The notes below the pieces were generated by a model. That model was not told the DNA's origin. It did no database searches and saw only the letters and a list, made by a program, of their open reading frames with translations. This document shows, piece by piece, positions 1-64,000 of a stretch of DNA of 64,000 bases. This DNA comes from a virus. Taxonomy: Duplodnaviria > Caudoviricetes. How positions within the stretch are numbered: position 1 is the stretch's first letter; each line of letters opens with the position of its first letter. A program made the translations under genes and the position numbers. Where the stretch lies: IMG/VR virus record IMGVR_UViG_3300023119_000004. One strand, given 5' to 3'.

Positions 1-642
1 ATTAAATTCACAGTTTCTATAATTCTTAAACCAAGGTCCGCCTTCAGTATAATGTAATGCTCTTGGAGTACCGTCACCTTCTTTATACCAACCTACTAAC
101 CAATTCCAATCAACTGGTAGTGAACCGATTTCTTCATCTTTGAGCCAACTGAAACGATGAAAGTATGCACCGTCATTGTTTGGATTGTTAACACTATCAA
201 CAGTAACTTTTTCATTTGATGGGTGTCCACAATTCCAAAGTACAACACTTGACCAATTCTTACGTGGGTATACTGTTTGTACTTGTCCGTCCATTTTAAT
301 TCCTGGCTTAGGTGTGTAATCGTGTTGTACACACATAACAGCATACTTGTCATCTGCTAATGCAAACAAGTTGTCGACATCTTCTAAAAATACAATGTCG
401 CTGTCAATGAATAATGCCCAGCCTTTATAATTTGTTAAATGTGGAATTAAAAATCTTGTAAATGTAAATTCGGTAGATGCTAACTTATCAACTTCTCTCC
501 AGTACACTTTTTGTTGACGCAGGTCGTCCTGGATTAGAGGTATAACATCTGTGTCTTTGTTGAACCTCTTTATACTATGCTCACAAACTTGGTAAGCAAT
601 ATCTTCTCTAGTGTCATATCCTACGAATACTTTGTTACTCAT
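1..642 (-). CDS. Glycosyltransferase, GT8-like/GT-A fold (runs off the left edge; absent from the ORF track)
   Basis: Manual translation from ATG at 642 (ATGA overlap with upstream stop): MSNKVFVGYDTREDIAYQVCEHSI...STEFTFTRFLIP...ALFIDSDIVF (DxD)...PRKNWSSVVLWNC...WNWL...LHYTEGGPW; open to position 1. Confidence 0.75.
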   Translation of the reverse strand, partial: MSNKVFVGYDTREDIAYQVCEHSIKRFNKDTDVIPLIQDDLRQQKVYWREVDKLASTEFTFTRFLIPHLTNYKGWALFIDSDIVFLEDVDNLFALADDKYAVMCVQHDYTPKPGIKMDGQVQTVYPRKNWSSVVLWNCGHPSNEKVTVDSVNNPNNDGAYFHRFSWLKDEEIGSLPVDWNWLVGWYKEGDGTPRALHYTEGGPWFKNYRNCEFN

Positions 643-56784: not shown

Positions 56785-57182
56785 TATCCACTATATCCTG
56801 TTGCATTTGAACCAAATGGTAAGTGATCTGCTGAAATTGTATCATCATAATCATATTTAGTGTTAATACGTAACACCAATTCTCCAGAATCATTTACATA
56901 ATAATAAATGTTCTTTTCATCCCAACGCATTTGTTCATAGTTTAAGTTATCAAAAACTAGTTCGTGATTAGGGTTTCTTCCCTCAAAGAAGTCTTCACCA
57001 GTTTGCCATTCTGCAAAGTTACCATCTGGACCACCTGGTCTATTAACTTGCAACTCGTCTGTAGGAGAAGCAATATCAACCTTTGCAATAAAAAGTTGTC
57101 CGTCATCGTCCCTACGCAATGCATAAAAATATCTATCGCTAGTTTGTCCTTCTAACGGTGCTGATCCTACATATTGTACCAT
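56784..57182 (-). CDS. Hypothetical virion-associated protein
   Basis: 132-aa ORF with 1-nt overlaps on both sides. Confidence 0.6.
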   Translation of the reverse strand: MVQYVGSAPLEGQTSDRYFYALRRDDDGQLFIAKVDIASPTDELQVNRPGGPDGNFAEWQTGEDFFEGRNPNHELVFDNLNYEQMRWDEKNIYYYVNDSGELVLRINTKYDYDDTISADHLPFGSNATGYSG

Positions 57183-57511
57183 TATACAATCTCCACGTAA
57201 CTAAGAATTACGTCAACAGCATCATCTTGATCTGCTGTAACTACTACTTCATTATTTCCTGGTAAGACTAATTTCTCACCACCATTAATTGCCCTTAAGG
57301 CCGCATTAGGTGCAATCATAACATCTTTGATATAATATCCTAATACACTTGTATCGTCTTTAATTTGAATACTAACTCTAGTATTACCGTCTAGTAGATT
57401 AGCAACTGACATACCAATTGCTGTAACTTTCGATGCCGGTGGCACAGTTAGTATTGAAATTGGTTGTGTTCCTACGCTTTTTTCTACTTTGTTTCTAAAA
57501 AATGTTGCCAT
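57182..57511 (-). CDS. Small beta-rich virion protein (paralog family)
   Basis: ILTVPP...SVAN...GEKLVL pattern. Confidence 0.6.
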   Translation of the reverse strand: MATFFRNKVEKSVGTQPISILTVPPASKVTAIGMSVANLLDGNTRVSIQIKDDTSVLGYYIKDVMIAPNAALRAINGGEKLVLPGNNEVVVTADQDDAVDVILSYVEIV

Positions 57512-57514
57512 ATC

Positions 57515-58990
57515 TTATCCTAAACTTAGTACTAACTCCAATGCAATGTTCTGTGCATCTGTTTGTGAAACAGCACCTGAACTACCTGCAACTGAATCCC
57601 ATTGTGTACCATCATAAATTTCTAATCTTCCGTCTGTTGTATTCCAACGCATCATACCAATAACTGGTGAAGGGTGTCTTTGAGCACCAGTACCTACCGG
57701 AACAACAAACCCTTCAGTACCGTCAAACTTAAAATAGCCTCCATTTGGGCTAGAAAACGTTAAAGCACCGCCGGCTACAGTATTATTTATAGTACTTCCA
57801 CTAATATTAACATCACCAATTTGTACACCGCCTGTACCGTTTGGTGATAAAATTAAGTCTGTATTAGCAGTTGTTGTACTGATAGTGTTACCGTCAAGTC
57901 TTATACTGTCAACTTGTAATCTAGCAACATTAAATTCTTGTTGTGTAACTGTAGCAATTAGTGAACCACCTGCATAAAATCTAATAGTATCATCATTTGC
58001 ACCTGGTGTTAATTCTGCTGTAATATATGTGTCAGCATCTAGGTCATATACTCCTGTTAGTACAATCCAGTTACCGTCATAACCTTCAAACTTATTTGTA
58101 TCTGTGTTATAACGAATCATACCAACTGCTGGAATTGCTGGTCTTTGTGCTGTTGTGCCTGACGGAATTCTAATAGATCCAGTAGCGTCAATATCCATTA
58201 CACCACTTGCAGGTGCAATAGTAATATCATTAGCAGAACTAATTCTGCTACCTTTAAAAATAAAATCGTCAATAATAACAGATCCATTACCTGCGTAACG
58301 TAATTCTAAATCTGCATTTGAAACTGTGTTTTGAATTACACCAGTATCGATTTGAATGTCATCAATGTAAGCACTTCCAGCATGAATACTATTCCATGTT
58401 TTTGCTGGTGTACCTAAGTTGTATGTTGCAGTTTGATCTGGTAATAAATCTGAAGTAATACCTGCATTAATGCTAATAGTATCTGTTGCTTCATCGCCTA
58501 TTACAACGTTACCTGCAACTGTTACATCACCACTAGCATTAATATTTCCTGTAACATCTAAATTACCTGTAATATTAGTATGACCTGTAATGTTAACTTC
58601 TCCAGTTCCGTCTGGAAAAATATCAATATCAGCATTTGATACTGTTGTAGAAATTACGTTTGTTTGAAATCTTAAATCGTCTACTTCAAAAGTTTTTAAT
58701 GAAGTAACTTTGTCTGATCCTACTGTTTGTAGTTGTAATGTGTTTCCAGTTGTTTCAACAGTATTACCACTTATACGTACATCGCCGACATAAGCAGTAC
58801 CTGAAGTTACTGAATCAATTGATCTTAGTGTTCCGTTAATATCTAAATCGTATTGTGGACTAGCGGTATTGACGCCGATCTTGCGGTTATTAACATCTAA
58901 GTAAAGTAAATCCGTTTCAAATGCTAAATCAACTCCATTACGAAGAAGATTTTGCTTTAAAAGCGGACCCGAAATACGACCTACAGCCAC
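57515..58990 (-). CDS. Virion structural/fibre protein; start revised to GTG 58990
   Basis: GAGGAG SD 7 nt before GTG; repeated IPSGTTAQRP...GMIRYNT modules; C-terminal LVLSLG. Confidence 0.7.
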   Translation of the reverse strand: MAVGRISGPLLKQNLLRNGVDLAFETDLLYLDVNNRKIGVNTASPQYDLDINGTLRSIDSVTSGTAYVGDVRISGNTVETTGNTLQLQTVGSDKVTSLKTFEVDDLRFQTNVISTTVSNADIDIFPDGTGEVNITGHTNITGNLDVTGNINASGDVTVAGNVVIGDEATDTISINAGITSDLLPDQTATYNLGTPAKTWNSIHAGSAYIDDIQIDTGVIQNTVSNADLELRYAGNGSVIIDDFIFKGSRISSANDITIAPASGVMDIDATGSIRIPSGTTAQRPAIPAVGMIRYNTDTNKFEGYDGNWIVLTGVYDLDADTYITAELTPGANDDTIRFYAGGSLIATVTQQEFNVARLQVDSIRLDGNTISTTTANTDLILSPNGTGGVQIGDVNISGSTINNTVAGGALTFSSPNGGYFKFDGTEGFVVPVGTGAQRHPSPVIGMMRWNTTDGRLEIYDGTQWDSVAGSSGAVSQTDAQNIALELVLSLG

Positions 58991-59134
58991 TTTATTGCTC
59001 CTCAATACGGGGATCCTGTCCCTCTAGCCTAATTTTCATCCTTACATTATTGCTCGGCTCTTTGCTGGCTAACCACAGTATGTCCCATACTACAACTAAG
59101 GGTCTCTCTCCCTTAATCGGTCTTGTAGTATGTT
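58991..59134 (-). ncRNA. Candidate structured 5' leader RNA (144 nt)
   Basis: TAAATA at 59140-59145; 10-bp stem 59132-59123/59095-59086 with inner UAAGGG/CCCUUA stem; further UAGCC/GGCUA and GGGA/UCCC pairings. Confidence 0.55.
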
Positions 59135-59158
59135 AATAGTATTTATCGAAAATGGATA

Positions 59159-60631
59159 TTAACCTAGTGCTAAGGTATAGATAAAGCCTAATTCTTCCAT
59201 GTAGTCTTCATTAACTGTATCACCTGCACCCGAAACGTTATTCCAATTACCATCAGCATAAGTTTCAAGATATCCTAGGGTAACGTTAAAACGTGTAGTA
59301 CCTTCTTGTAGTGTTGCACCACCCGGTCTTGCCGCTAATGACCCCGAAGGAATTACAAATCCGCCAGTATCTGCAAATTCAACACGACCGTATTGCGTAG
59401 GTACATTATTTGTTCTAGTAAACACAAAATCATTCGTTAGACTTGTGTTAGTAATAGTAGCACCATTAAAATCTAAATCATACATTCTAACTGTACCTGA
59501 ACTTGGTACTAGATTAATATCTGAATTAGTTACTTGGCTACTAATAGTTCCGTTATCAAATGTTAGATTATCCTGAGAAACTAATCTAGTTGACACAATT
59601 CCTAAATCTGTCAATGTATGATTTGTAACACCATTTGTTGTAAAATCGAAATAGTTTCCAGCATTTGCTAGTACATAAGTCTGTCTATCTTCACTCCAAA
59701 TACCCCTTAACGGAGTATATGCACTTGAAAATAATTCAAAGAAATTTGTAGTTGTATTATAACGAACATCTCTAAACAAGTTAGGACGTTCTGCTTCAGT
59801 ACCGTGCGGAACATTTAGTGCTCCAACTCCGCTAATCCCGATGTTAGCACCCGGATCTAAATTAAATGTTGTTGAGTTTGTTGTAGTTAATGTACTACCG
59901 CTAATTCTCATATCATCAATGACAATAGCACCCGTACCACTTGCTCTTAAAATTAAGTTATTACCCGAACTTGTTGTAGTTATGTAATCATTATCAATTT
60001 CAATGTCGCCAAATTTTGCTTTTGCGGCTGTAACGTTATTCCAAACTTTTGTAGGGCTACCTAAATTAAGATTATCCTCAGTTCTATTAGGAACTATGTC
60101 TTGTGAAAAATCTACTAAACTAAAATTAATTGTATCTGTTTCTTCATCACCAAATACAAAGTTACCGCCAACAGATAAGTTACCTGGAATAGTAACATTA
60201 CCAGTAACATCAATATCTCCAATATGGTTTACATTTTTTCTAAAGTGTGTAATACCTGTTCCATGAGGTTGAAAGTTTATGTCACTGTTTGATAAACTTG
60301 TAATATCGTTATTATTAAAAACTAAATTGTCAGTATGTAACTGTTCTGCTCTAACTAAATTAGCAGAATTTAAATTAATATCTCCAACTGTTGCTCTTAC
60401 GCCAGTTGTACTAACTTCAATATTTCCCGAAGTCTTTCTAGTAAAATAACCATCGCCGTACCAAGACTGTCCTAGTACTTGTACAAGGTCTGTTGGAGAA
60501 TTTGTAAGGACACCTATTCGTGTATTACTCGATCCAATATGAAGTAGATCAGTTTCAAACGCTAGGTCAGACTGTGTTCGAACTAAGTTCGATGCTAATA
60601 ATGGACCTGATATTCTTGCTATTTGTGACAT
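59159..60631 (-). CDS. Virion structural/fibre protein, paralog of 57515-58990
   Basis: N-terminal RISGPLL.SNL.R...DLAFETDLL shared with its neighbour; C-terminal YTLALG. Confidence 0.7.
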   Translation of the reverse strand: MSQIARISGPLLASNLVRTQSDLAFETDLLHIGSSNTRIGVLTNSPTDLVQVLGQSWYGDGYFTRKTSGNIEVSTTGVRATVGDINLNSANLVRAEQLHTDNLVFNNNDITSLSNSDINFQPHGTGITHFRKNVNHIGDIDVTGNVTIPGNLSVGGNFVFGDEETDTINFSLVDFSQDIVPNRTEDNLNLGSPTKVWNNVTAAKAKFGDIEIDNDYITTTSSGNNLILRASGTGAIVIDDMRISGSTLTTTNSTTFNLDPGANIGISGVGALNVPHGTEAERPNLFRDVRYNTTTNFFELFSSAYTPLRGIWSEDRQTYVLANAGNYFDFTTNGVTNHTLTDLGIVSTRLVSQDNLTFDNGTISSQVTNSDINLVPSSGTVRMYDLDFNGATITNTSLTNDFVFTRTNNVPTQYGRVEFADTGGFVIPSGSLAARPGGATLQEGTTRFNVTLGYLETYADGNWNNVSGAGDTVNEDYMEELGFIYTLALG

Positions 60632-60659
60632 ACTGTTATGTTCCCTCTAACAGTATTTA
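60630..60659 (-). promoter_or_regulatory. Late promoter (60654-60659) overlapping a 9-bp hairpin that encloses the SD and pairs the AU of the start codon
   Basis: AUACUGUUA-GAGGGAACA-UAACAGUAU(G). Confidence 0.6.
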
Positions 60660-60665
60660 TTGGAA

Positions 60666-61169
60666 TTACTTGTCGAAATTATGTAGGACTGTTACTGGTT
60701 TACCTGTTGGAACAGGAGTACCAAATACTACATACCAACCTGCGGCATAACCGCTTGGGTTTTGTTCAAGTACATAGTTTGTAGTTGCTAGTTGAAAAAC
60801 GTTTTCAATAGTAACAATAATATTTGCCGCTGATGCTGGAGCAGGGTTATAAGTATCGCCGTTGTTTAACGGACCAAATTTAGTTTCAACATCATTGCCG
60901 TTACCTAAATTTTGTTGTACAATAGTTGCTGGTTCAAAACGTCTAATAGGCGCCCAACTACCATTTTCATAATCTTCAAATACATTTTCATCTGAGTTAT
61001 ATCTAATCATTCCGTTTTCAGGACTTGAAGGACGTTGTGCAGTTGTTCCTATTGGAACCACAACAGAATTATCACTGTCTAAGACAATCTTGCCGTTAAT
61101 GTCTCTACGGATATCTTTATTACCATAGATTCCTCTTGCATTTGTTGATTGTGCTCTTAGAAAACGCAT
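60666..61169 (-). CDS. Virion structural protein
   Basis: VPIGTTAQRP...GMIRYN module and F.T.VPTGKPVTVLH C-terminus. Confidence 0.65.
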   Translation of the reverse strand: MRFLRAQSTNARGIYGNKDIRRDINGKIVLDSDNSVVVPIGTTAQRPSSPENGMIRYNSDENVFEDYENGSWAPIRRFEPATIVQQNLGNGNDVETKFGPLNNGDTYNPAPASAANIIVTIENVFQLATTNYVLEQNPSGYAAGWYVVFGTPVPTGKPVTVLHNFDK

Positions 61170-61171
61170 AA

Positions 61172-61504
61172 TTAAACTTCCAAATAACTTACTGTAACAC
61201 TTAGATTCAATGGTGCTTGTGATAGTAATACTACACTATCGCCTGATTCTAAAATAATTTTTTCAGAATCAAAAGTAAATGTCTCTCCACCTGGAACAGG
61301 CATTTCTTTAACAACCATGTTTGTATTTGATTTTGGTTCTGTATTCTTTACAAAATGCAAATCAAATGACGAATCGTTTGTTCCTGCCGCATCATAACCT
61401 GCATGATTACACACCATAACTGTTGTAATAGCATACTGAGTTTGAGGCGGTACAGTTAGTACCGTTGTATCTGTGTTTCCAATTGCCGCTTGTGCTATTG
61501 CCAT
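61172..61504 (-). CDS. Small beta-rich virion protein (paralog family)
   Basis: VLTVPP...MVCN...SEKIILESGD pattern. Confidence 0.6.
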   Translation of the reverse strand: MAIAQAAIGNTDTTVLTVPPQTQYAITTVMVCNHAGYDAAGTNDSSFDLHFVKNTEPKSNTNMVVKEMPVPGGETFTFDSEKIILESGDSVVLLSQAPLNLSVTVSYLEV

Positions 61505-61513
61505 TTTACATCC

Positions 61514-62482
61514 TTAAAATATCATACTTAAAAGTAATGATCTGTTTTTGCTTATTAACTCATCTCTTGTACTATTACTATTTACATAATAGATACCAGT
61601 TTTTCCAATGTCTTGAGTTTTAGTATAAATTTTAACACCATCTGTTGGAGCCGCCGGATCAAGAGTATTATCATCAACACTAGGTGTTGCTAAAATATGT
61701 AGTTGGTCATCAATTACAACAGAACCTGTGCCAGGCGCACTTAAAGTTAAATCTGCTCCACTATTAGTAGTTTCAATAGTAGAATTTACAAATCTAAAAT
61801 CATGCATTTCTGTTCTATCATTATAGAAGTTTGCTGTAGTAATACTGTCAACAGTAACAGCAAAGTTACTTGGGTGTCCAGTTGTTTCACTGTCAAACAC
61901 TTCAACTTCTGTTAAACTTGCAGTACCTGTTCTTAGTCTTGTAAAGTTTGCCGCGGCAACCTGTTGTGCAATAACGTTGTCAACATATTTTTTATTAGGA
62001 ATATCGTCGTCGTCTGTAATTTGATCTTCGTAGTTGTTAGTTCCACTAACACTAATAACACCAGTACCACTATTAATTAAAAATAAATCACCACCACCGG
62101 TTGTAATACTTCTTACTTGTAATCCAATGTTACCACCGTTTTCGTCAATTAATGTAAATGCACCTGTTCTAATAGTTTGTGAAACAGGATCATTCCAGTT
62201 AATTGTTTCGTCAAACAAAATCTGTGTATCAGGCAAACTACCTCTGTCAATTCTAATACCTGCTTGTCCAAGTGTTACACCAACACCAGTTTCGCCATTG
62301 TTAATAACAATAATATTATCGTTAACTTCCAAGTTTGCTGATGAAACAGTTGTAGTATTACCATTGACAACAAGATCACCTGTTAGGTATAATTGTCCAA
62401 TCAAGTTTCCAGTATCAATAGTTACTGTACCGCCTTCTTGTACTTTTATTGTATAATCGCCTGTTGTTACAAATTGTTTCAT
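61514..62482 (-). CDS. Virion structural/fibre-related protein
   Basis: LTGDLVVNGNTTTV...VNDNII...AGIRIDRG fibre-type segment; IPNKKYVD. Confidence 0.6.
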   Translation of the reverse strand: MKQFVTTGDYTIKVQEGGTVTIDTGNLIGQLYLTGDLVVNGNTTTVSSANLEVNDNIIVINNGETGVGVTLGQAGIRIDRGSLPDTQILFDETINWNDPVSQTIRTGAFTLIDENGGNIGLQVRSITTGGGDLFLINSGTGVISVSGTNNYEDQITDDDDIPNKKYVDNVIAQQVAAANFTRLRTGTASLTEVEVFDSETTGHPSNFAVTVDSITTANFYNDRTEMHDFRFVNSTIETTNSGADLTLSAPGTGSVVIDDQLHILATPSVDDNTLDPAAPTDGVKIYTKTQDIGKTGIYYVNSNSTRDELISKNRSLLLSMIF

Positions 62483-62501
62483 TAACTAAATCCTAAAGTT
62501 A

Positions 62502-62521
62502 GTGGGGGATTTCTCCCCCAC
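62502..62521 (-). other. GC-rich GAAA-tetraloop hairpin between genes (no U-tract)
   Basis: GUGGGGGA-GAAA-UCCCCCAC. Confidence 0.6.
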
Positions 62522-62535
62522 CATAGTACTATCTA

Positions 62536-62976
62536 TTAGCCATCACCTTCAGTATCGTCAGCACCTGTTAGTACGTCATCTGATGTACCAAGAGTTGCGT
62601 CAACACCTGCGCCAATGCCTGTACCTGCTTCTTCAACTGCTACTGTATCACCAGTACCTGTGAAGTCCCAGTTAATTCTTGAACCGTTGTCCATAGTAAG
62701 AACACGACCAGAAATTTTAGTTACTTGACGAGCAGTACCACCGTCATCAACTGTAATAGTCATTTCACCTGCCGCGATAGCCGCTGATGCTTTGTCTACT
62801 AGGTAGCAAGTACCAGTGTCTGTTCCGCCTGCATTTGAAACTTTAAAACGCTTTGAACCAGTTTGTTTTACAATGTAACCCGGTGTTGAACCGTTACCTG
62901 TGTTAAACTGGACCTTAATTTCTGAACCACCTGCTGTAGGTGCTCCGAAATATCTTTTATTAATAGGTCTTCCCAT
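62536..62976 (-). CDS. Conserved-looking virion protein; start revised to ATG 62976 (MGRPINKRY)
   Basis: AAGGAG SD before 62976; GYIVKQTGSKRFKV motif. Confidence 0.65.
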   Translation of the reverse strand: MGRPINKRYFGAPTAGGSEIKVQFNTGNGSTPGYIVKQTGSKRFKVSNAGGTDTGTCYLVDKASAAIAAGEMTITVDDGGTARQVTKISGRVLTMDNGSRINWDFTGTGDTVAVEEAGTGIGAGVDATLGTSDDVLTGADDTEGDG

Positions 62977-62996
62977 TTGTTTTCTCCTTATTAGAA

Positions 62997-63069
62997 GTCC
63001 GATGCACGTTCTAGGTGCTACGGGGTTGGATCCCCATAAGTCCGCCACTCTTGCGGCACACTATCTGAC
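62997..63069 (-). ncRNA. Candidate 73-nt four-way-junction (tRNA-like) 5' leader RNA
   Basis: Closing stem plus three hairpins; first G lies 6 nt after TAAATA (63075-63080). Confidence 0.6.
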
Positions 63070-63077
63070 ACAAGTAT

Positions 63078-63497
63078 TTATCTAATTGCTGTGATTGGTG
63101 AATTATTATTACGAACTGCAAGATTTATAAAGGATCTTATAAAGTCAAAGCGTGTTGCAAGTATTTCAAATAAATCTGTATTAAAGCCTTCTTGCACAAG
63201 CGTATATGAACTTTTTCCTATATCTGAATAGTACCGCACACTTATTCCATACTCAGGAAAAACGCCTGTAACAAACAAACAACTATCTCCTAATTCTTTT
63301 GCTGTGTAGTTGTATGGACGTTTGAGTTTTAAAAACTCTTGTGCAAAGGTTTGTTTTGGAAGAAAATTTGGTTTGTCTATTTTGTCTGCAAGAAGCATTA
63401 CTACATAGGCTTCAATTTCGGTCGGAAGATCAAACCCAGTAGTTGACTGTGCCTCGCGGACAATGTCGTAAAAGGCCGATGTGTATTCGTCCCTCAT
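63078..63497 (-). CDS. Hypothetical protein
   Basis: 139-aa ORF with TAAATA-TTAGT-ATG start. Confidence 0.65.
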   Translation of the reverse strand: MRDEYTSAFYDIVREAQSTTGFDLPTEIEAYVVMLLADKIDKPNFLPKQTFAQEFLKLKRPYNYTAKELGDSCLFVTGVFPEYGISVRYYSDIGKSSYTLVQEGFNTDLFEILATRFDFIRSFINLAVRNNNSPITAIR

Positions 63498-63502
63498 ACT
63501 AA

Positions 63503-63508
63503 TATTTA
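63503..63508 (-). promoter_or_regulatory. Late promoter TAAATA, 5 nt before ATG 63497, no SD
   Basis: TAAATA-TTAGT-ATG. Confidence 0.65.
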
Positions 63509-63511
63509 GTC

Positions 63512-63545
63512 AAAAAAATAGGCCCAATGCGAACAGAGGGCCTAT
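63512..63545 (-). terminator. Intrinsic terminator after the cold-shock gene
   Basis: AUAGGCCC/GGGCCUAU stem followed by UUUUUU. Confidence 0.8.
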
Positions 63546-63558
63546 AGTTGTAGTTCTA

Positions 63559-63759
63559 CTACTTGACTGTTAAGTTTACAGCAGAAGGGCCTTTTGGACC
63601 ATCCTGAATTTCAAACTGTACAGTATCGCCTTCGTTCAACGAGTGTAAGCCTGCGGCTTCTACTGCTGAAATGTGTACGAAAATATCTTTATTTTCACTT
63701 GCGATAAATCCAAAACCTTTAGCGGAGTTGAACCATTTTACTTGTCCTTGATTACTCAT
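63559..63759 (-). CDS. cspA: Cold-shock protein (CspA family)
   Basis: RNP1 [12 protein letters not shown] and RNP2 DIFVHISA; 66 aa. Confidence 0.93.
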
Positions 63760-63879
63760 GTTTTTCCTTGTTCGTGTTTATATTTGAGGAAGTTTGTATC
63801 TAATATTAGGGCGGGAGGTTTGTTAATTCTACTGCGTCTTGTTCTTATTACTGTCTTGTCTCATTTGTATTTAGTCAAT

Positions 63880-63917
63880 AAAAAAGGTTTATCCAGTCTC
63901 CCGAATAAACCTCTTTT
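63880..63917 (-). terminator. Intrinsic terminator upstream of the csp promoter (TAAATA 63868-63873)
   Basis: AGGUUUAU/AUAAACCU stem followed by UUUUU. Confidence 0.7.
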
Positions 63918-64000
63918 AGGCATAAGCAAAATAGGTAGGACTTGGTTACACCTACAACCCTTCGACGCAGATACCTATCTGAATCCCAGGAACCGACTTC

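Follow-up and report, generated by a model that had tools for sequence, protein, structure and literature searches.

The closest described relative of the RNA discussed here is freshwater-2, an Rfam family (RF02980) of type Cis-reg, which originated from a comparative screen and is not discussed in the main text of the paper reporting that screen (Weinberg et al. 2017, PMC5737381). The family model comprises three hairpins (P1, P2 and P3) and, 3' of these, an unpaired tail in which the Shine-Dalgarno (SD) sequence and the AUG are located. We have analyzed a member of this family in a stretch of 64,000 nucleotides, called the window below, from the virus record IMGVR_UViG_3300023119_000004 of IMG/VR (Duplodnaviria; Caudoviricetes). 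In the window, the RNA forms the 5' leader of a gene for a 146-residue protein that begins MGRP, downstream of a box resembling the late promoters of phage T4. We propose, with a probability of about 0.6, that this three-hairpin leader acts in cis between the late promoter and the SD sequence of one virion gene, and that it controls the initiation of translation by means of a pseudoknot.

Among translational operators, that of Escherichia coli rpsO (S15) is a pseudoknot, and the bound protein traps the ribosome. On paper, the freshwater-2 leader would be similar: its pseudoknot would be of the H type, the SD sequence would fall within the connecting loop, and the second stem would contain or adjoin the start codon, which might allow the 30S subunit to be trapped by a bound factor. 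Unlike in rpsO, however, the second stem would have only 3–5 base pairs and the P3 hairpin would lie inside the connecting loop; there is also no sequence or family relation between the two RNAs, and no binding protein is known for freshwater-2. The pseudoknot in the leader of T4 gene 32 and the coat-protein operator of MS2 are comparable in that a structured RNA is located at the 5' end or the start codon, where an abundant phage protein could limit the synthesis of itself or of another protein. However, the gene 32 pseudoknot is located far upstream and nucleates cooperative binding to single-stranded RNA, while the MS2 operator is a single hairpin containing the AUG, and neither has sequence or architecture in common with freshwater-2.

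The window was scanned with Rfam, and the only match above any curated threshold was RF02980 at 62974-63058 (-), with 71.6 bits compared with the gathering score of 49.9 (E = 6e-9 for the window). The alignment is full-length, covering model positions 1-84 of 84. Even at E <= 10, the window gave no second freshwater-2 match, and a scan of the whole IMG/VR record (184,930 bases, estimated 51% complete) gave the same single copy. The window copy has the three consecutive hairpins of the family, of which P2 and P3 adjoin directly, as well as the conserved UUAUGC..GCGUA and UAGAAC and the cis-regulatory position directly upstream of the SD sequence and AUG of a protein gene. Both the window copy and the other members are known from uncultured aquatic sequences only. 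The window copy differs from the model in that its sub-lineage carries about 11 additional nucleotides at the 5' end and a GGACUUCU linker with which a fourth stem can be drawn; the model begins at P1, not at GUCAGAU, and this closing stem is absent from it. The leader RNA is thus a member of a known family that is already curated in Rfam. An earlier note, made from the letters of this DNA, had presented the leader as an undescribed RNA, had called for an Rfam search, and had named identity with a known family as the result that would overturn the claim; that identity is what the search found, and the claim of novelty fails. The same note had pointed to the words GGAUC and CCCCGUA as common to this leader and one at 59 kb. 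These shared words exist, but there is no second freshwater-2 match at that place (E <= 10).

Homologues were collected from IMG/VR with a degenerate core pattern, which gave at least 120 contigs, all of them true copies; the counts out of 107 and 112 below are taken from the matches listed. With a second scan added for copies with AUGGC (Ala at codon 2), the total is 152 distinct leaders. More than 150 IMG/VR copies carry the element directly before the SD sequence and start of an 'MGRP...' gene, and in all 120 of the listed pattern matches the element is followed by an SD sequence, ATGGGA or ATGGCA, and an MGRP or MARP gene. The downstream gene always begins with one of these two motifs but is otherwise diverse, at 116-512 residues. 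The previous suggestion that such leaders co-regulate several virion genes finds no support in these data, as there is one copy per genome record, always before the same gene. The carriers are uncultured T4-like phages, some of them jumbo. A blastn search of the leaders against 50,697 GenBank phage records found no copy, and a separate search with the 4-kb region also gave nothing similar.

The 74-nucleotide RNA of the window folds as a four-way junction with -29.6 kcal/mol (z = -3.17), a stability reached in 0 of 200 shuffles; since this stretch folds as it had been drawn, the letters and hairpins of the earlier drawing are correct. The comparative evidence resides in two of the hairpins. In alignments of 32 and 89 sequences, P2 is paired in 100% of cells, with compensatory changes at 2 of its 7 pairs, and P3 is paired in 96-97%, with compensatory changes at all 4 pairs. 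The place of P1 is taken in other clades by a hairpin of entirely different sequence. The hairpins P1, P2 and P3 are real, and the pairing of P2 and P3 is far beyond chance.

The late promoters of T4 have a TATAAATA box, read by gp55, a few nucleotides before the transcript start, and no -35 element. Among the matches listed, 107 of 112 distinct leaders have TAAATA no more than 60 nucleotides upstream. Of the 21 ATAAATA sequences of the window, 20 are on the coding (-) strand, mostly 16-30 nucleotides before gene starts. A 284-residue open reading frame (ORF) of the same record, at G000:C1:78735-79013, matches T4 gp55 weakly but specifically (E = 2.4e-7, 34% identity over residues 21-115). The strand bias of ATAAATA, together with this gp55-like ORF, suggests that late transcription in the phage is of the T4 type. 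Six bases after the ATAAATA box (63081-63075, -) comes GUCAGAUAGUG, and then P1, P2 and P3. The first G of GUCAGAU is six nucleotides past TAAATA, and G63069 is the predicted transcript start. The earlier proposal of a structured leader on the mRNA of a late virion gene, with a late transcription start site (TSS) predicted at this distance, is supported.

What might this leader do at the start codon? In nearly all leaders, the P2 loop includes CCA, CCC or CCG, a complement to UGG of AUGG. When codon 2 changes, the loop often changes with it: loops with GCC or AGC, which place a G opposite +5 (AGC opposite GCU), are present in 22 of the 43 leaders with AUGGC, compared with 0 of the 109 with AUGGG. 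Counted by clusters of similar leaders, the proportions are 9/12 and 1/44 (Fisher p = 2.7e-7). When 91 leaders were aligned with MAFFT, pair 16-76 occurred as C-G 45 times and as G-C 15 times, and for pair 15-77 there were 13 leaders with U-A and 9 with A-U. The paired cells, the compensatory cells and the covariation score between loop and codon 2 all exceed those of all 500 shuffles and of every slid register. A helix of at least 3 base pairs that includes +5 can be formed in 78% of leaders, compared with 48% with shuffled loops (maximum 57%), and in 77 of 152 leaders, the U of AUG is the first nucleotide of the longest complement of the loop within the linker and first 15 coding nucleotides. 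In the IMG/VR copies with a GGAG SD sequence 7 or 8 nucleotides from the AUG, codon 2 begins with G in all. From this covariation, the P2 loop probably forms a pseudoknot by pairing to the start and second codons; we consider the pairing supported, not proven.

Two other readings of the same region were tried and rejected. The invariant AUG of P2 is in frame with the UAG of the P3 loop in the window copy and could be taken for an upstream ORF, but the loop length varies from 5 to 10, the two are in frame in only 61 of 107 leaders, and there is no SD sequence. An anti-SD role for CUUCU or CUCCU would apply to only some clades, as many linkers are without a pyrimidine block. Separately, on a capsid-protein tree of 83 loci, near-identical leaders with a AACAGCAA loop and an AUGGCU start are found in three separate places, which suggests either that phages exchange a module of promoter, leader and N-terminus or that the tree is poorly resolved.

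The MGRP protein encoded downstream (P0001) has 434 uncharacterized homologues and no match in Pfam, PHROG or the PDB sequences. Its AlphaFold2 (AF2) model, with a predicted local distance difference test (pLDDT) score of 81.9, is composed of small beta-barrels, for which Foldseek (PDB) and VIA-align found only generic SH3/Tudor-like barrels with Z < 5, below significance. The nearest cultured relatives are gp498 of the Agrobacterium jumbo phage Atu_ph07 (P0123, 35.15 kDa) and a protein of the Sinorhizobium phage Phosso; both are jumbo phages that infect Rhizobiaceae. Each of the 13 gel bands of the purified Atu_ph07 virion contained gp498, for which 23 peptides gave a coverage of 75.5% (PMC6102473, Table S5). 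It is annotated as hypothetical although mass spectrometry detects it well in the virion, and a second Atu_ph07 MGRP paralogue of 470 residues is present in BFVD. The MGRP genes of Atu_ph07 (L122, 360882-361862) and Phosso (L123, 317456-318160) have ATAAATA 25-30 nucleotides before the ATG and short, unstructured leaders. The features of the locus in the window are collected in Table 1.

Table 1. Features of the MGRP locus in the window, with contig depths from two RNA-library runs; part of the depth comes from related phages
Feature	Position	Strand	Basis	Depth, run X1	Depth, run X2
ATAAATA box, T4-type late-promoter-like -10 element	63075..63081	-	sequence		
GUCAGAU, predicted transcript 5' end (G63069) and 5' arm of proposed closing stem P0	63063..63069	-	sequence; TSS inferred		
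P1 hairpin UGCCGC-AAGA-GUGGCG	63043..63058	-	Rfam model positions 1-17		
P2 hairpin UAUGGGG-AUCCAA-CCCCGUA, invariant UAUG/CGUA base	63019..63038	-	covariation		
P2 loop AUCCAA (6 nt), proposed 5' strand of start-codon pseudoknot	63026..63031	-	loop/codon-2 covariation		
P3 hairpin GCAC-CUAGAAC-GUGC, 7-nt loop with invariant UAGAAC, abutting P2	63004..63018	-	covariation		
Linker AUCGGACUUCUAAUA, containing 3' arm of proposed closing stem	62989..63003	-	sequence		
AUCGGAC, 3' arm of proposed closing stem	62997..63003	-	sequence		
Shine-Dalgarno AGGAG	62984..62988	-	sequence; conserved AAGGAGAAAACAAAUG in RF02980 model		
AUG (62976) and codon 2 GGA, proposed pseudoknot 3' strand	62971..62976	-	loop/codon-2 covariation		
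Downstream gene, 146-aa 'MGRPINKRYFG...' protein (P0001)	62536..62976	-	ORF		
10-bp G+C-rich hairpin just 3' of the gene's stop codon	62500..62523	-	fold of 62470-62560, z = -3.58		
Contig depth, gene	62641-62973			65.8	31.9
Contig depth, leader	62976-63079			30.9	11.9
Contig depth, downstream flank				~10.8	6-10
Contig depth, upstream flank				~13.3	~6

The stretch is present as contigs in 24 metatranscriptome runs labelled salt marsh, and the depths in Table 1 were obtained from exact-match contigs in two of these. One exact-match contig spans 62976-63079. The contigs break, and the depth falls, near the hairpin at 62500-62523, a possible terminator or 3' stabilizer in which there is no canonical U-tract. 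The depths and the 3' hairpin fit a separate, more abundant transcript for the MGRP gene.

The leader is syntenic with the head module. Of the 92 loci with enough upstream DNA, 69 have, upstream and in the same orientation, a gene for a gp23-like major head protein (phrog_138), which is within 150 nucleotides of the leader in 20 of these 69. It is preceded by genes for the portal, the prohead protease and a scaffold-sized protein, and fibre-like genes are found downstream of the leader. The fibre-like genes downstream of the MGRP gene in the window (57515-62482, -) encode 322, 167, 490 and 496 residues, share a 'P.GTTAQRP...GMIRYN..FE.Y.G.W' module, and alternate with two small paralogues of 110 (61172-61504) and 109 (57182-57511) residues. 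Genes of the 322- and 110-residue types are also located 3' of the leader at 42-44 other loci.

Between the capsid gene and the leader, this phage has a cold-shock gene (csp) and an ORF of 139 residues. The stretch with these two genes (63086-63915) is missing in the RNA-library contigs of related strains, with joints 63086>63915 and 63085>63922, and one such contig has in its place a G+C-rich, terminator-like hairpin insert of 27 nucleotides. Thus, the stretch looks like an insertion. The cold-shock protein was considered as a conserved partner of the leader and rejected, as csp is located beside the leader in this genome only and in none of the other 120 listed loci. The Rfam model of the cspA thermoregulator (RF01766) matches 63515-63962 (-) below its threshold, with 48.7 bits compared with the cut-off of 78 (E = 2.3e-9). 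This match extends over the csp gene (63559-63759), in which Pfam finds CSD (E = 1.7e-24), and about 200 nucleotides upstream. Besides this match over the neighbouring csp gene, there is no other Rfam match near the leader at E <= 10.

The mechanism that we propose for the leader is as follows. The P2 loop (..NCCA) would pair with UGG-S-N of the start and second codons to give the pseudoknot, which would leave the SD sequence in the connecting loop and bury the AUG. The leader would thereby set or switch the initiation of translation of the MGRP virion protein. Most likely, it would act as an operator, with the pseudoknotted form stabilized by a trans-acting protein or a small ligand. The invariant UAUG/CGUA base of P2 and the UAGAAC loop of P3 resemble a recognition surface for such a factor, and the binding of a protein to the leader, as suggested earlier, is still a reasonable idea. 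The simplest candidate would be the product of the gene itself, present in excess. In this form of the operator, the encoded capsid-module protein, once its sites in the virion are filled, would lock the pseudoknot and trap or exclude the ribosome; this we regard as tentative and rather unlikely. The hairpin at the 5' end may additionally protect the mRNA.

Several observations weigh against this mechanism. The putative pseudoknot helix is short (3-5 base pairs), and most of it cannot vary, because AUGG is also held by the protein sequence (Met-Gly/Ala). A compensating loop is missing in 13 of the 43 AUGGC copies, with three AUGGC clades uncompensated. The capsid-protein tree has about 9 independent changes of G to C, of which 5 are forced by well-supported branches, and only 5 clades are compensated; a sign test of independent pairs on this tree was not significant, with too few pairs. 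The freshwater-2 RNA is absent from the MGRP loci of Atu_ph07 and Phosso. As these phages run the same gene and promoter type without it, the RNA is an accessory, and since the MGRP N-terminus is conserved in phages without the RNA, the autoregulation step is weak. The RNA-library contigs, in which part of the depth comes from related phages, are by nature unable to reveal transcript ends, strand or a released small RNA. To our knowledge, no function has been described for RF02980, and no experiment has been performed on any member.

Could the leader be a passive expression element that works without a trans-acting factor? The hairpins stacked at the 5' end would then block 5'-end-dependent decay and insulate a strong, unstructured ribosome-binding site (RBS), giving high output. 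In most members, only a few nucleotides separate P1 from the predicted transcript start, the A-rich RBS AAGGAGAAAACAAAUG is close to optimal, and the gene has its own promoter and 3' hairpin. High output would also suit the good detection of the Atu_ph07 homologue in the virion and the gene contigs, which are deeper than those of the neighbours in the RNA libraries. However, a generic stabilizer needs neither the invariant UAUG/CGUA stem base and UAGAAC loop nor a loop that covaries with codon 2, and the relatives manage without the RNA. We consider this explanation possible but on the whole doubtful.

A metabolite riboswitch appears less probable, although riboswitch-like motifs occur in phages. 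In this case, P1-P3 and the pseudoknot between loop and start codon would form the aptamer, and the ligand-bound state would hide the start codon, as in SAM-II and preQ1-II. The invariant nucleotides in stems and loops (UAUG/CGUA, UAGAAC) and the fixed place before one gene would be expected of such an element, and the candidate pseudoknot touches the initiation region; moreover, many orphan RNA candidates have been listed from comparative analysis (Weinberg et al. 2017, PMC5737381). However, the regulated gene encodes a virion protein with no metabolic link, and the gene context yields no candidate ligand. The element is also small, with little room in junctions or internal loops for a binding pocket, and the sequence of P1 is not conserved. 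We therefore think a riboswitch unlikely.

It is very improbable that the leader causes processive antitermination, as the put RNA of phage HK022 does, by acting on RNA polymerase at the head of a late operon of fibre genes. Two adjacent hairpins do lie immediately 3' of the promoter, with very long fibre-like genes farther along the same strand. But the element is tied to the SD sequence and start of one gene family, 1-22 nucleotides away, and there is one per genome; a hairpin and a drop in depth come after the first gene, and the fibre genes have TAAATA boxes of their own.

The earlier note had drawn the RNA as a cloverleaf, and here the two parts of the drawing fared differently: the three hairpins stand, with P2 and P3 upheld by covariation, whereas the acceptor-like closing stem GUCAGAU/AUCGGAC is unsupported by comparison. 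Among the matches listed, 107 distinct leaders have a recognizable promoter box. In about 66 of these (short class), P1 starts 5-10 nucleotides after TAAATA, so that they cannot have the 5' arm, while about 40 (long class, the window included) carry an extra GUCARAUAGUG; the stem is thus missing in about 60%. In an alignment of 32 long-class leaders, the stem is paired in 74.9% of cells. However, five of its pairs vary hardly at all and carry no information, 27 of 29 leaders have an A.G mismatch, and the sole variable pair is standard in 13 and unpaired in 16. The stem is broken in the AUAGGAC clade, and cognate 5' and 3' arms show no gain in helix length over non-cognate or shuffled arms. AUCGGACUUCU is conserved as well in leaders without any 5' arm and must be kept for some other reason. 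One small clade (L019, L031, L036, L060, L075) has a continuous 7-bp AGUUCAA/UUGGACU closing stem. Going by these alignments, the closing stem may form in some lineages but is not a feature of the freshwater-2 family; it would be at most a trait of one sub-lineage, dispensable for the function of the family.

When the start region is included (106-nucleotide RNA), the minimum free energy fold drops the closing stem, and GGACUUCU pairs instead with GGAAGACC in codons 2-4. This helix (within 62971-63003, -) encloses the SD sequence and AUG and is mutually exclusive with the closing stem. As a conserved alternative structure it was rejected, because the sequences of the GGACUACU and GGACUCCU clades disrupt it and show no compensating changes.

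The window RNA does have some likeness to a tRNA or a viral 3' tRNA-like structure (TLS), in that it is about 73 nucleotides long and can be drawn as a four-way junction, with the 7-nucleotide-loop hairpin P3 beside, and stacked on, an interrupted 7-bp closing stem. Unlike these, it has a 6-nucleotide middle loop and no T- or D-loop consensus (the P3 loop, CUAGAAC, is not a UUCRA T-loop), there is no CCA, and the element is located at the 5' end of an mRNA. ARAGORN, a check that had also been called for, found 0 tRNA or tmRNA genes in the whole window. The idea of a tRNA mimic, cut by RNase P/Z or bound by tRNA-binding factors so as to free an RNA of about 73 nucleotides, can therefore be set aside as the least probable of all, since the fold of the window RNA and the clean stem of the one small clade are outweighed by these missing hallmarks, by a closing stem absent from most members, whose P1 is at the predicted transcript start, and, weakly, as small RNAs are lost in such libraries, by an exact-match leader contig no deeper than the coding contig.

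The promoter, the identity of the gene, the synteny with the head module and the pairing of loop and start codon were derived in this analysis, and they may have been described earlier. With them, the orphan freshwater-2 RNA now has a setting: uncultured T4-like phages, a late promoter, a gene that usually comes after the major capsid gene, and a homologue of that gene's product in the virion. An anonymous motif thus becomes a testable hypothesis, namely translational control of a virion protein, for which the cultured relatives with the promoter and gene but without the RNA are a natural control. If it is true, the operator reading would tie the synthesis of an abundant virion protein to the assembly of the capsid in a large group of uncultured T4-like phages.

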